Shown here in pieces: positions 7,162 to 61,996 of a stretch of DNA of 64,000 nucleotides. The stretch comes from Escherichia coli (GTDB taxonomy: Bacteria > Pseudomonadota > Gammaproteobacteria > Enterobacterales > Enterobacteriaceae): NCBI RefSeq assembly GCF_041248615.1, contig NZ_CP158426.1; one strand, written 5' to 3'. The notes below the pieces were generated by a model that was not told the origin of the DNA, made no database searches, and was given only the letters and a program-made list of their open reading frames with translations. The first letter of the stretch is position 1. Every line of letters begins with the position of its first letter. The position numbers were made by a program, and so were the translations under genes.

Positions 7162-7369
7162 GCGAGCAGCATTCCTGATTTTAAACGTGAACGCCGCTGG
7201 AAGAATTATCAGGTATAGAATGGCGTTGGGTGCTTGAGGCTGTCTGGCGTTAAGCATTCGCGAGGTTCCAGATGGACAAAAGCCCCAGGCGATATTTCTA
7301 TCAACCTGAGGCCAGCGTTCGAACCTAAGCAATTCGAATGTTAGTCTCTTCTTTGCAGGGAGGCAAGAC

Positions 7370-7522
7370 ATGCTGACAAAATATGCCCTTGTGGCAATCA
7401 TCGTACTGTGTTGTACAGTACTGGGATTCACGCTGATGGTAGGCGACTCGTTGTGTGAGTTGAGTATCAGAGAACGTGGTATGGAGTTTAAGGCAGTTCT
7501 CGCTTACGAATCGAAGAAGTAG
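7370..7522 (+). CDS. hokX: Hok/Gef-family small membrane toxin (type I toxin-antitoxin)
   Basis: 50-aa [53 protein letters not shown]: hydrophobic helix plus conserved C-terminal Cys/Glu pattern typical of Hok; GGAGG RBS; below the 60-aa cutoff of the ORF track. Confidence 0.7.
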
Positions 7523-16374: not shown

Positions 16375-17074
16375 GTGTTCCCCGCGTCAGCGGGGATAAA
16401 CCGGACTCAGTTTTTCCCTGCTGACCCTCCGAAGGGTGTTCCCCGCGTCAGCGGGGATAAACCGCCATGCCGCGCCAGCTCTGCGAAACAGCCCGCGTGT
16501 TCCCCGCGTCAGCGGGGATAAACCGATCCAAAGATAGTCGCCCCGATTGCCAAATTGGTGTTCCCCGCGTCAGCGGGGATAAACCGACGGTATTGTTCAG
16601 ATCCTGGCTTGCCAACAGGTGTTCCCCGCGTCAGCGGGGATAAACCGGCGGCACTAACGTGATAATCACGATCAATTATGTGTTCCCCGCGTCAGCGGGG
16701 ATAAACCGTGACGGTCCGAAAAAAGTTGGCTGAAGAAATTGTGTTCCCCGCGTCAGCGGGGATAAACCGGTTATTGCGTTTTCCTCACCTGCGGCGAGTC
16801 CGTGTTCCCCGCGTCAGCGGGGATAAACCGCATTCCGTGCAGCGGTCTGAATAATTGCCGCGGTGTTCCCCGCGTCAGCGGGGATAAATCGAGTAACGAC
16901 GAAAAAATACAGGCACGGGCCAGGTGTTCCCCGCGTCAGCGGGGATAAACCGATCCCCGCAGGTATCGCGCAGCTATCGATCGAGTGTTCCCCGCGTCAG
17001 CGGGGATAAACCGGACGCACTGGATGCGATGATGGACATCACTTGGAGTTCCCCGCCCCTGCGGTAGAACTCCC
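16375..17074 (+). CRISPR. type I-E CRISPR array: 12 repeats (29 nt), 11 spacers (all 32 nt), 61-nt period
   Basis: Repeat GTGTTCCCCGCGTCAGCGGGGATAAACCG starting at 16375, 16436, 16497, 16558, 16619, 16680, 16741, 16802, 16863, 16924, 16985; repeat 9 has C->T at 16889; degenerate terminal repeat GAGTTCCCCGCCCCTGCGGTAGAACTCCC at 17046-17074. Confidence 0.97.
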
Positions 17075-31104: not shown

Positions 31105-31132
31105 GCCGGGTAGTGGCTTTGCTTTACCCGGC
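31105..31132. terminator. hairpin between convergent ecdD and pphB
   Basis: Perfect 8-bp stem GCCGGGTA/TACCCGGC with 12-nt loop, then CTCATTACTTTATTTTAT. Confidence 0.45.
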
Positions 31133-31136
31133 CTCA

Positions 31137-31793
31137 TTACTTTATTTTATAAAATGACAGCCGCCCGCTTTTCGGCGATCCGGTATCAATATAAATCTGG
31201 TTTGCGAACGTCTGAATGTTATCAAACATCATATGTCCAAATATAAAATAATCAGCGCCGTTTATTTGTTGTAACTCGCCATTAAGCGATTTCTGCACAC
31301 GATCAACAGGCCAGAGTAATTCTCTCTCCGCTATTTCTTTGCCAAAGAGATATTCACTCCCCGGATAATCTGCATGTGCGATGACATATTTTATTATGTC
31401 GTTAGTGATTTCAATAATATGTGGAAGGTGATGAAATTTCAGCAACAGATCTATTGCTTCTTGTTGTTCCGTCTCATTTAATTCAAAGAACCAGTCGCCG
31501 CCGCTGGCAAGCCACATATTGCCATCGCCGGTCGCGAACGCATCCAACGCCATCGCTTCATGGTTGCCTTTAACCGATGTAAACCAGGGCTGGTTTAGCA
31601 GGTGCAGCACGTTAAGACTCTCCGGCCCACGATCAATATTATCGCCGACAGAAATAAGTAAGTCGGCTTCAGGGCAAAAAGAGAGTTGATGTAAGCGGGA
31701 TTGTAATAATTGATAGTCACCATGAATATCACCAACGGCCCATATATGGCGATAGTGATGGGCATTGATTTTTTGATAGCGTGTAGATGGCAT
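31137..31793 (-). CDS. pphB: serine/threonine protein phosphatase 2
   Basis: 218 aa; metallophosphatase motifs GDIHG, GDNIDRG, GNHE. Confidence 0.9.
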   Translation of the reverse strand: MPSTRYQKINAHHYRHIWAVGDIHGDYQLLQSRLHQLSFCPEADLLISVGDNIDRGPESLNVLHLLNQPWFTSVKGNHEAMALDAFATGDGNMWLASGGDWFFELNETEQQEAIDLLLKFHHLPHIIEITNDIIKYVIAHADYPGSEYLFGKEIAERELLWPVDRVQKSLNGELQQINGADYFIFGHMMFDNIQTFANQIYIDTGSPKSGRLSFYKIK

Positions 31794-41402: not shown

Positions 41403-41418
41403 AGCAATAATTGTGCCA
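41403..41418 (-). promoter_or_regulatory. sigma-54 promoter (-24/-12) for the hyp operon
   Basis: Minus strand reads TGGCAC-AATTA-TTGCT, a near-perfect sigma-54 consensus about 30 nt upstream of hypA. Confidence 0.6.
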
Positions 41419-41583: not shown

Positions 41584-42045
41584 ATGACTATTTGGGAAAT
41601 AAGCGAGAAAGCCGATTACATCGCACAGCGGCATCGTCGCCTACAGGACCAGTGGCACATCTACTGCAATTCGCTGGTTCAGGGGATCACGTTATCGAAA
41701 GCGCGCCTGCATCACGCCATGAGCTGCGCGCCGGACAAAGAACTCTGTTTCGTCCTTTTTGAACATTTTCGTATTTACGTCACCCTGGCGGATGGCTTTA
41801 ACAGCCACACCATCGAGTATTACGTCGAAACAAAAGATGGTGAAGTCAAACAGCGGATTGCGCAGGCGCAACTGAGCATTGACGGCATGATTGATGGCAA
41901 GGTCAACATCCGCGATCGCGAACAGGTTCTGGAACACTATCTCGAAAAAATCGCTGGCGTTTACGACAGCTTATACACCGCCATTGAAAACAATGTGCCG
42001 GTGAATTTAAGCCAACTGGTAAAGGGACAAAGCCCGGCAGCATGA
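41584..42045 (+). CDS. hycA: formate hydrogenlyase regulatory protein HycA
   Basis: 153 aa; first gene of hyc operon. Confidence 0.9.
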   Translation: MTIWEISEKADYIAQRHRRLQDQWHIYCNSLVQGITLSKARLHHAMSCAPDKELCFVLFEHFRIYVTLADGFNSHTIEYYVETKDGEVKQRIAQAQLSIDGMIDGKVNIRDREQVLEHYLEKIAGVYDSLYTAIENNVPVNLSQLVKGQSPAA

Positions 42046-57725: not shown

Positions 57726-58859
57726 CTACACCGGCAACGTTTTCAACAATCCAAACGCCTCTTTCATCCGATCCTCACTGACCACAAAGGCGCGAAGCTG
57801 GTCGGCATCATCAACACCGCGCGCCACCATTCCCTGGCGTTCGGTATTAATTTGCCAGCGTAAATCCTGACGCTGGGTTTCGCCTGCCAGATGCAGCGGT
57901 AATTCTGGCGTTTTGATTTTCACCAGCATCGCCGGGAGTTTCAGCGGCGTGTTATTGCCGAGAAGATTTTTTGCCAGCACCATCGCGCTAAGTTGAATCG
58001 GCTGGAGGAACGGCAATACCTGACCGTTAATTTCCGTGCAATCGCCCAGCGCATAAATATCGGCATTACTGGTTTGCAGATAACTATCGACGCAAACGCC
58101 GCGATTAATCGTCAGCCCGGCGCGTCGTGCCAGGGCGGTTTCCGGGCGCAGTCCGGTGGCGGCAATTACCGCATCCACTTCGATGCTGCGCTGGCGGTCC
58201 AGCGTTGCCAGAATGCCAGAATCCGTTTTTTCCAGCCCCTGCAACTGAGATTTTAACAGCAGATGAACGCCAATCTCCGTCAACCGATGCTGCAAGCGGC
58301 TGCTTACTTCCGGTGGCATTAACGATGCCAGAATACTGGCAGCGTTGTCGATTAGCGTGACCGCTTTGCCTGCACGACAAAAATCCATCGCCAGTTCGCT
58401 ACCAATCAAGCCACCGCCAACAATCAATACGCGTCGGGCATCCCGCAGTTGCGTTTCACAGGCGCGATACTCTTGCTGACTATTTAATGTCAGCATTAAC
58501 TCACGCCCAGGCACTGGCGGGACAAAGGCGCTGGCTCCGGTTGCCAGCACTAACTTGTCGTATTGCCACTGATTATTCTGACTTTTCACCACATGGGCTT
58601 CGGCATCGATATCCGTCACCCAGGTGTGCGGAAACAGGTGCAGATTAAACTGCTCGGCAAATTCACCCGCCGTCTGGCGGGTAAGGTCATCGGCACGTTG
58701 CCCCTGGCTGATAACATGGCTGAGATCCGGTTTGTTGTACTCATCCATGCTGTCGGCGGCAATCAGAGTTAATGGAATACTGGCGTCCTGTTTGCGAATA
58801 TTTTTCACCAGTTGGCGGGCGGCGAAGCCCGAACCAATGATCACAATGCCGTTGCTCAT
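57726..58859 (-). CDS. norW: NADH:flavorubredoxin reductase
   Basis: 377 aa; FAD motif [10 protein letters not shown]; overlaps norV stop. Confidence 0.93.
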
Positions 58860-60295
58860 TTTGCCTCCGATGCCAGTTCGTCAAAGACGTCTTTGCCGAG
58901 AGAGCATTCCGGGCACAGGAAGTTATCCGGGACTTCACTCCACGGCGTTCCTGGCGCAACGTCCTGCATTGGCTCGCCTTTTGCCGGATCGTAAATCCAC
59001 TGGCAGACGCTGCACTGCATCCGTGGGCCGAGGTCAGCCGTCGTGTTGGCAGAGGTTTCTTCTTTAACCACCGTATTCACCGTGCTCTGCGGCAGCGGCG
59101 CGAGCGCCCACTGACGGGCGATTTCGCGACCGTGTTCACGGCATAACTCCAGAGCGTCCTGGTCCGGTCGCCATTTGGCTTTCAGGCTAAGCGACATTTC
59201 GAAACCTGCATCCTGCAGGCGTGTGGAAAGACGATCCACCGCACCGCCGCTCCAGCCGTGAGAGCCGAAAGCACTGGCGCGTTTGTTACGGAAGCGTAAA
59301 CCAGTCATCTCCTCCACCAGCCCGGCGATTTTCGGCATCATCACATTATTCATCGTAGAAGTGCCGACCAGCACGCCTTTTGAGCGGAAGACATTGGTCA
59401 GGATTTCGTTTTTATCGCTTCGGGCGACGTTGAAAATTTTCACCGCCACGCGTGGGTCGGTTTCCGCAATACCCTGGGCGATAGCATCGGCCATCATGCG
59501 GGTATTATTCGACATGGTGTCGTAGAAAATGGTGATTCTGTCTTCCTGATAATCCGCCGCCCATTTCAGGTACAGCTCGACAATTTGCGTCGGGTTATCG
59601 CGCCATACCACGCCGTGAGAGGTCGCTATCATATCGACTGGTAAGTTAAAGCCCAGGATCTCGGTAATTTTCGGCGTTACCAGGCGGCTGAACGGCGTCA
59701 GGATATTGGCGTAGTAACGCTGGCACTGCTCGAAAAGCTCCGTCTGATCCACTTCATCGTTGAACAGATGCTCGTCGCAGTAGTGCTGACCGAAAGCATC
59801 GTTACTGAATAGCACCGCGTCGCCTGTCAGGTAAGTCATCATGCTGTCCGGCCAGTGCAGCATTGGCGTTTCGACAAAAATGAGCTGTTTGCCGTTGCCG
59901 ATATCCAGTGTGTCGCCAGTTTTCACCACATTAAAATTCCACTCCGGATGATGGTGATGACCATTTATCGAGTCGATAGCGTTGGCAGTACAGTAAATCG
60001 GCGTATCGGGAATTTGCGCCATCAGTTCGGTCAGCGCCCCGGCGTGGTCCTCTTCAGCATGGTTAATCACGATGTAATCGATATCCGCCAGATCGATTTC
60101 ATTACGCAGGTTCTGCACAAATTCGCGGCTGAATTTATGGTCAACGGTGTCGATCAGCACGTTTTTTTCTTCGCGGATGAGGTAGCTGTTGTAGCTGCTG
60201 CCGCGCAGCGTTTTATATTCCGTGCCGTGAAAATCACGCACTTCCCAGTCACGTTGACCAACCCAATGAATGTTATTTTTCACCACAATAGACAT
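58856..60295 (-). CDS. norV: anaerobic nitric oxide reductase flavorubredoxin
   Basis: 479 aa; metallo-beta-lactamase-like domain, flavodoxin domain, C-terminal rubredoxin CxxC...CPEC. Confidence 0.95.
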
Positions 60296-60342
60296 AGCAA
60301 CCTCAATTTATTCAGCGTGTTCTAAAAAGATGTCTTGCTAAT

Positions 60343-60358
60343 TGCAGATTGCGTGCCA
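60343..60358 (-). promoter_or_regulatory. sigma-54 promoter (-24/-12) for norVW
   Basis: Minus strand reads TGGCAC-GCAAT-CTGCA about 45 nt upstream of norV. Confidence 0.6.
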
Positions 60359-60413
60359 GTTTTTTATCTGATTGTTTTTACTCTATAAATAAAATTATGC
60401 TCATTAATGAGTA

Positions 60414-60469
60414 GTCAAAATGACTATCAATCAAATGGTCGATATGACAATATCTATAGTCAAATTGAC
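60414..60469. promoter_or_regulatory. three NorR enhancer sites (GT-N7-AC)
   Basis: GTCAAAATGAC (60414-60424), GTCGATATGAC (60438-60448), GTCAAATTGAC (60459-60469). Confidence 0.7.
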
Positions 60470-60481
60470 AGTGAGGCAAAG

Positions 60482-61996
60482 ATGAGTTTTTCCGTTGATG
60501 TGCTGGCGAATATCGCCATCGAATTGCAGCGTGGGATTGGTCATCAGGATCGTTTTCAGCGCCTGATCACCACGCTGCGTCAGGTGCTGGAGTGTGATGC
60601 CTCTGCGTTGCTACGTTATGACTCGCGGCAGTTTATTCCGCTTGCCATCGACGGGCTGGCGAAGGATGTACTCGGTAGACGCTTTGCGCTGGAAGGGCAT
60701 CCACGGCTGGAAGCGATTGCCCGCGCCGGGGACGTGGTGCGCTTTCCCGCAGACAGCGAATTGCCCGATCCCTATGACGGTTTGATTCCCGGGCAGGAGA
60801 GTCTGAAGGTTCACGCCTGCGTTGGTCTGCCATTGTTTGCCGGACAAAACCTGATCGGCGCATTGACGCTCGACGGGATGCAGCCCGATCAGTTCGATGT
60901 TTTCAGTGACGAAGAGTTACGGCTGATTGCCGCGCTGGCGGCGGGAGCGTTAAGCAATGCGTTGCTGATTGAACAACTGGAAAGTCAGAATATGCTGCCA
61001 GGCGATGCCGCGCCGTTTGAAGCGGTGAAACAGACGCAGATGATCGGTCTGTCGCCAGGTATGACGCAATTGAAAAAAGAGATTGAGATTGTGGCGGCGT
61101 CCGATCTCAACGTCCTGATCAGCGGTGAGACGGGAACCGGTAAGGAGCTGGTGGCGAAAGCGATTCATGAAGCCTCGCCACGGGCGGTGAATCCGCTGGT
61201 CTATCTCAACTGTGCCGCACTGCCGGAAAGTGTGGCGGAAAGTGAACTGTTCGGGCATGTGAAAGGAGCGTTTACTGGCGCTATCAGTAACCGCAGCGGG
61301 AAGTTTGAAATGGCGGATAACGGCACGCTGTTTCTCGATGAGATCGGCGAGTTGTCGTTGGCATTGCAGGCCAAGCTGCTGCGGGTGTTGCAGTATGGCG
61401 ATATTCAGCGCGTTGGCGATGACCGCAGTTTGCGGGTCGATGTGCGCGTGCTGGCGGCGACTAACCGTGACTTACGCGAAGAGGTACTGGCAGGGCGATT
61501 TCGCGCTGACTTGTTCCACCGCCTGAGCGTGTTTCCACTTTCAGTGCCGCCGCTGCGTGAGCGGGGCGATGATGTCATTCTGCTGGCGGGGTATTTCTGC
61601 GAGCAGTGTCGTTTGCGGCTGGGGCTCTCCCGCGTGGTATTAAGTGCCGGAGCGCGAAATTTACTGCAACACTACAATTTTCCGGGGAACGTTCGTGAAC
61701 TGGAACATGCTATTCATCGGGCGGTAGTGCTGGCGAGAGCAACCCGCAGCGGCGATGAAGTGATTCTTGAGGCGCAACATTTTGCTTTTCCTGAGGTGAC
61801 GTTGCCGCCGCCAGAAGTGGCGGCGGTGCCCGTTGTTAAGCAAAACCTGCGTGAAGCGACAGAAGCGTTCCAGCGTGAAACCATTCGTCAGGCGCTGGCG
61901 CAAAATCATCACAACTGGGCCGCCTGTGCGCGGATGCTGGAAACCGACGTCGCCAACCTGCATCGGCTGGCGAAACGTCTGGGGCTGAAGGATTAA
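60482..61996 (+). CDS. norR: NO-responsive sigma-54-dependent transcriptional regulator
   Basis: ORF 60407..61996 over-extended: it would run through the three NorR sites; start at [18 protein letters not shown] (60482) with GAGG RBS; 504 aa; GETGTGKE and GAFTGA motifs. Confidence 0.9.

Follow-up and report, generated by a model that had tools for sequence, protein, structure and literature searches.

Promoters controlled by NorR have been described in several proteobacteria and share a layout in which tandem GT-N7-AC repeats lie upstream of a sigma-54 promoter. This layout is found at norVW of Salmonella, Erwinia and Vibrio, at hmp of Pseudomonas and V. cholerae, and at norAB of Ralstonia. 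These promoters differ in their target genes and in how many sites they carry; NorR2 of the Vibrionales, for example, has two tandem sites at hcp. NorR-regulated promoters usually adjoin a divergent norR gene (PMC1274295, PMC2831303). The underlying mechanism is common to NtrC at glnAp2, NifA at nifH and FhlA at hyc/hyp: an AAA+ hexamer sits on the enhancer, IHF helps the DNA to loop, and ATP drives the remodelling of the closed complex. The NorR system differs from these relatives in its strict need for three sites and in that its enhancer DNA serves as a ligand that activates the ATPase (PMC2831303). Compared with other enhancer-binding protein systems, the NorR enhancer is also unusually close to the start codon of its own regulator, lying immediately upstream of it.

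The norR–norVW region of E. coli K-12 is reportedly the subject of work by Tucker et al. in 2004, Gardner et al. in 2003 and Hutchings et al. in 2002. The region analyzed here belongs to a 64,000-nt stretch of E. coli DNA, referred to below as the window, and represents the same locus as in K-12. Positions 60296–60481 coincide exactly with the 186-bp intergenic region between the divergent genes norV and norR. An 801-bp query around it matches many annotated E. coli chromosomes at 100% identity; in these the flanking genes are norV and norR, and the neighbors in an annotated identical strain are hypF, norW, gutQ and srlR. Compared with K-12 MG1655 the intergenic region carries one changed base (window 60401, T here and C in K-12), which sits in an AT-rich spacer outside every motif, and functionally nothing notable differs. 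The features discussed below are as follows, each with the evidence on which it is based.

58856–60295, minus strand: norV, encoding the flavorubredoxin NO reductase (479 aa), first gene of norVW (ORF list, RefSeq annotation of a 100%-identical strain, NF003954)
60301–60304, minus strand: Shine-Dalgarno sequence of norV, GAGG, 5 nt before the ATG at 60295 (sequence)
60343–60358, minus strand, read from 60358 to 60343: sigma-54 (-24/-12) promoter of norVW, TGGCACGCAATCTGCA (sequence, PMC1274295, conservation)
60360–60413, no strand assigned: AT-rich spacer between promoter and enhancer, with a conserved T-run/ATTG(A/T)T block at about 60360–60379 (alignment, PMC2831303)
60407–60481, plus strand: spurious, non-coding 25-codon upstream extension of norR over the three NorR sites (Shine-Dalgarno signal, GC3, periodicity, stop codons)
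60414–60424, no strand assigned: NorR enhancer site 1, GTCAAAATGAC (sequence, primer and oligonucleotide match, conservation)
60438–60448, no strand assigned: NorR enhancer site 2, GTCGATATGAC (sequence, primer match, conservation)
60459–60469, no strand assigned: NorR enhancer site 3, GTCAAATTGAC (sequence, primer and oligonucleotide match, conservation)
60473–60476, plus strand: Shine-Dalgarno sequence of norR, GAGG, 5 nt before the ATG (sequence, anti-Shine-Dalgarno energy, alignment)
60482–61996, plus strand: norR, 504 aa, with GAF, AAA+ sigma-54 activator and lid domains (RefSeq, Pfam, NF003451, alignment, periodicity)

We consider it about 97% probable that 60296–60481 is the divergent control region of norVW and norR, that norR is read from the ATG at 60482, and that the 529-aa reading frame extending further upstream is accidental. 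The region, its sites, the promoter and the norR start were already known in full detail, and the reference annotation uses 60482. It is a textbook model of enhancer-dependent sigma-54 activation that already serves as an NO biosensor part, and the analysis adds no new biology. On the norV side, the assignment of the gene is supported by a match of its reading frame to the NCBIfam model NF003954 (1046.6 bits, covering positions 1–479 of 479). The CCTC columns corresponding to its Shine-Dalgarno sequence are mostly kept in an alignment of 25 genera.

The norVW promoter reads TGGCAC-GCAAT-CTGCA on the strand of norV, with the GG at 60357/60356 and the GC at 60345/60344, giving a GG-N10-GC arrangement. 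This is the minus-strand TGGCAC-N5-CTGCA element that had been claimed for the intergenic region; it is present at 60358 to 60343 and is identical to the published sigma-54 promoter of norVW. TGGCACGCAATCTGCA has one mismatch to the TGGCAC-N5-TTGCW consensus. The published table for E. coli norVW lists the sigma-54 site TGGCACgcaATcTGCA at -64 (PMC1274295), which agrees with the start of the element 63 nt before the norV ATG (60358 - 60295 = 63). The dependence of this promoter on sigma-54 is documented experimentally: without sigma-54 no open complex forms on norV promoter DNA (PMC2831303), a peak in RpoN gSELEX falls in the norR/norV spacer, and norV of Salmonella was up 16-fold in a sigma-54 regulon experiment (PMC3844500). 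The pattern by itself carries little weight, with five matches in the whole window at up to one mismatch against 2.3 expected, which alone is not significant. Two of the other sigma-54-like matches are TGGCACAATTATTGCT at 41403–41418 on the minus strand, just upstream of hypA, and TGGCACATCTACTGCA at 41653–41668 on the plus strand, inside the start of hycA according to the annotation of a collinear strain. Both lie within the divergent hyp/hyc region that is controlled by FhlA.

All three enhancer sites are inverted repeats of the form GTC-N5-GAC and thus fit the GT-N7-AC description. Their centers are 24 and 21 bp apart, about two helical turns each, and the center of site 1 is 62 bp from the GG of the -24 element. 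The original prediction of three evenly spaced GT-N7-AC sites was therefore right about their presence and place, while the spacing is only roughly even. The three repeats are the published NorR enhancer sites 1–3 of norVW. The mutagenic primers used for sites 1, 2 and 3 by Tucker et al. 2010 carry these exact sequences (PMC2831303), the 21-bp NorR1 oligonucleotide of that study matches site 1 exactly, and its 66-bp NorR123 oligonucleotide maps to 60409–60474 with zero mismatches. In their supplementary table, Rodionov et al. 2005 place the E. coli norVW NorR sites at -179, -158 and -134 (PMC1274295), and the three sites in the window together with the sigma-54 16-mer are the same four sequences as tabulated there. 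The one major peak in NorR gSELEX falls in the norR/norV spacer. Changing GT-N7-AC to GG-N7-CC in any single site abolishes induction of a norV-lacZ fusion, and all three sites are essential in vivo, for ATPase activity and for open-complex formation (PMC2831303).

A fourth GTC-N5-GAC repeat, GTCACGTTGAC, occurs at 60248–60258 inside norV, over Gly-Gln-Arg-Asp codons near residue 13. About 25 of the other loci carry it too, at -234 to -238, and it does not figure among the published NorR sites. It probably reflects coding constraint in norV.

For a wider comparison, 80 orthologous loci from other Enterobacterales were fetched, and the counts are given for 79 or 76 loci. The three NorR sites are found at exactly -68, -44 and -23 from the norR ATG in 73 loci, the window included. 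Entropy is zero in the GTC and GAC columns and 1–1.9 bits in the spacers between them. The TGGCAC of the -24 element is present in 76 of 79 loci and lies 60–63 bp from the center of site 1 in all but one. An ATG is aligned at the norR start in every one of the 79 loci, preceded by a nearly invariant GAGG. The conserved blocks in the 25-genus alignment are the norV start and its Shine-Dalgarno sequence, the -24 element, the T-run/ATTGAT block, the three sites, the GAGG and the ATG. The identity, positions and conservation of these elements and the norR start codon are direct results of the present analysis.

The -12 element is less uniform. Among 76 loci it is CTGCA in 29 (Escherichia, Salmonella, Citrobacter, Kluyvera and others) and TTGAT in 39 (Klebsiella, Enterobacter, Raoultella and others); both forms retain the TG, CTGCA also has the canonical GC, and TTGAT is without the canonical C of the -12 element. 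It is conceivable, if rather unlikely, that this split sets closed-complex stability, leakiness or the NorR-dependence of NO detoxification differently in the two groups.

The position of the norR start requires separate consideration, since an in-frame ATG at 60407 opens a 529-aa frame that passes through all three NorR sites and is the longest mechanical ORF. That the supplied norR ORF runs through the sites is evident from the ORF list. The original prediction held that the sites force a shorter start at 60482, with a ribosome-binding site and a product of 504 aa. The first step of this argument is invalid when taken alone. Regulatory sites can sit in coding DNA, so binding sites cannot by themselves force a start. 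The shorter start is nevertheless right on other grounds: of the original argument, the ribosome-binding site and the predicted length hold good, and comparison across loci settles the start at 60482. The frame 60482–61996 comprises 1,515 nt or 504 codons' worth of protein and is preceded by GAGG 5 nt before the ATG; RefSeq, the NorR family model and the residue numbering in the literature all agree with it. Choosing the longest ORF lengthens norR by 25 spurious codons that run through the NorR enhancer, and the motif-based correction agrees with the curated annotation.

Several lines of evidence support this assignment. In RefSeq, norR starts at the position equivalent to window 60482 both in an identical strain and in K-12 (1,515 nt); for the identical strain the mapping places the norR start at locus position 2983, with the start of the match at 2501 corresponding to window 60000. 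The NCBIfam NorR equivalog model NF003451 scores 825.9 bits against a cut-off of 476, and its positions 2–511 of 512 align to residues 26–528 of the long ORF. Comparison with characterized NorR gave the same result: the published residues R75, R81, D96, D99, C113, D131, F264, G266, S292 and Q304 all fit the numbering of the 504-aa form, and none fits the 529-aa form. The GAFTGA motif spans 262–267 in the 504-aa numbering, and this form begins with MSFSVD. Pfam recognizes GAF, Sigma54_activat and AAA_lid_14 domains in the norR ORF, with GAF beginning at residue 47 of the long ORF and no Pfam domain over its first 25 residues; HTH_8 was not listed for the norR product at E ≤ 0.001. The 20 nt before 60482 can form an anti-Shine-Dalgarno duplex of -6.5 kcal/mol, which is in the top 5% of window positions. 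Finally, the column entropies by codon position in 73 ungapped loci are 0.28, 0.18 and 1.01 bits for norR codons 2–25, compared with 1.25, 1.18 and 1.02 bits for the upstream spacers. This codon-position pattern indicates that coding constraint starts at 60482.

In view of the above, the alternatives can be weighed. Translation of NorR from the ATG at 60407 as a 529-aa protein, with the enhancer sites inside its coding sequence, is favored by the frame being open from 60407 in the window, in K-12 and in the 3,763 of 5,426 complete E. coli genomes (about 69%) that carry the exact 33-mer with TCA at 60431–60433. With an extension open in so large a share of the species, the sequence by itself leaves translation from 60407 permissible in this strain. 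However, the same codon is TAA in another E. coli, in an Escherichia sp. and in one contig that bears the label Citrobacter and shows 99% identity to E. coli, and it is TAG in E. albertii; some Escherichia have GTG or ATT in place of the ATG at 60407. At least 616 of the 5,426 genomes, the type strain ATCC 11775 among them, have the TAA version, which closes the frame; the roughly 1,050 genomes with other variants fall outside both the TCA and the TAA counts. None of the six RefSeq records listed for the TCA and TAA searches has an annotated CDS over the extension. The 20 nt before 60407 show no anti-Shine-Dalgarno pairing (+1.6 kcal/mol), GC content is 0.25–0.33 over the extension versus 0.5–0.68 in the gene, GC3 is 0.28 versus 0.62, and the extension is without codon periodicity. 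Indels between the Shine-Dalgarno sequence and the ATG of norR in other genera are not multiples of three, which also argues against the 529-aa protein, as do the family model, the RefSeq start and every published residue number, all of which begin the protein at 60482. The comparative data refute the 529-aa form as the main NorR product, and we regard its chance of being correct as very slight. The evidence thus supports the ATG at 60482 as the true start of norR, the extension from 60407 not being part of the gene.

A milder version holds that both starts are used, so that in strains with an open frame a longer transcript would give a minor, N-terminally extended NorR. The open frame in this strain is consistent with it, and no transcription start was found that would exclude a transcript from upstream of 60407: the literature covered, genome-wide transcription start studies included, yielded neither a mapped norR or norV transcription start nor native NorR N-terminal data. 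Against it stand the missing ribosome-binding signal at 60407, the lack of conservation of the 25 residues even within the species, and the failure of any domain or family model to span them. A minor extended product is therefore quite improbable, though a little less so than exclusive use of 60407. The least probable view, to the point of being negligible, is that the motifs are functionless chance matches in AT-rich intergenic DNA. It draws on the window-wide counts, in which neither the sigma-54 pattern nor GTC-N5-GAC is enriched (14 of the latter found against 11.5 expected), and for that reason cluster statistics and conservation were used instead. Three GTC-N5-GAC repeats within 60 nt arose in only one of 300 Markov-simulated 64-kb windows, and 20,000 simulated 186-nt sequences of the same dinucleotide composition as the intergenic DNA did not yield the three-site cluster once. 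Cores that are invariant over about 25 genera between variable spacers form the stronger argument against chance. The mutagenesis and footprinting published on this exact sequence decide the matter, and the mutagenesis refutes the chance-match explanation. The reading as a norVW/norR control region with norR starting at 60482 is accordingly retained.

A related observation concerns other genera. In most genera outside Escherichia, an ATG in the norR frame stands 30 nt (10 codons) ahead of the start of the gene and falls between sites 2 and 3; it aligns to window 60452–60454, where E. coli has ATC. With this ATG in frame, the longest-ORF rule would over-extend norR there too.

The spacer between promoter and enhancer is reported to bind IHF in E. 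coli, the binding being placed between the norV promoter and start site and the NorR sites (PMC2831303). A search of 60359–60413 in this E. coli sequence for the IHF consensus WATCAANNNNTTR with up to one mismatch gave no match, and matches between sites 1 and 2 occur at chance frequency. At the conserved ATTGAT block a perfect IHF consensus, on the minus strand only, is present in 25 of 76 other loci, while E. coli has ATTGTT. As the E. coli spacer is without a good IHF consensus, IHF binding rests on the cited footprint. A consensus scan of the plus strand detected no sigma-70 promoter for norR. Manually picked candidates such as TATAGT at 60455–60460 were rejected, as they have no credible -35 element. 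A sigma-70-like TTGTCA-16-GATAGT at 60450 to 60423 on the minus strand points to norV and overlaps NorR sites 1 and 2; it is at chance level. An Rfam scan of the intergenic region returned only a match to a eukaryotic snoRNA with E = 0.92, attributable to chance.

How the region operates is taken from published work on this same sequence, which covers the binding of NorR, the requirement for each of its sites, the dependence on sigma-54, the part played by IHF and the sensing of NO. In this picture NorR, a 504-aa enhancer-binding protein of the GAF-AAA+-HTH type, binds the three GT-N7-AC repeats as dimers, and the repeats with their flanking DNA provide a scaffold for a NorR hexamer. Bending of the AT-rich spacer by IHF, as reported, then lets the hexamer meet sigma-54 RNA polymerase in the closed complex at 60358 to 60343. 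Binding of NO to the iron of the GAF domain, for which R75, D96, D99, C113 and D131 are given as ligands in the literature, releases the AAA+ ATPase. The freed ATPase then remodels the closed complex, after which norVW is transcribed leftwards.

With 13 bp between the end of the enhancer and the norR ATG, bound NorR plausibly also limits transcription of norR and may in this way repress its own gene. Hutchings et al. in 2002 are said to have reported results in support of such an effect.

Some other features of the window may be mentioned. A sok antitoxin RNA (Rfam RF01794, 111.7 bits) is found at 7228–7385 on the plus strand and is part of a hok/sok-type locus on the chromosome, flanked by cysH and cas3. 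When compared with strain CFSAN061763, the window is without a block of about 6 kb (ygbN, ygbM, otnC, otnK, ltnD and ygbI) between rpoS and mutS, at about 31108–31138, and the type I-E CRISPR array differs at about 16375–16403. The norV–norR region is 100% identical between the two, compared with 97–98.5% identity elsewhere.
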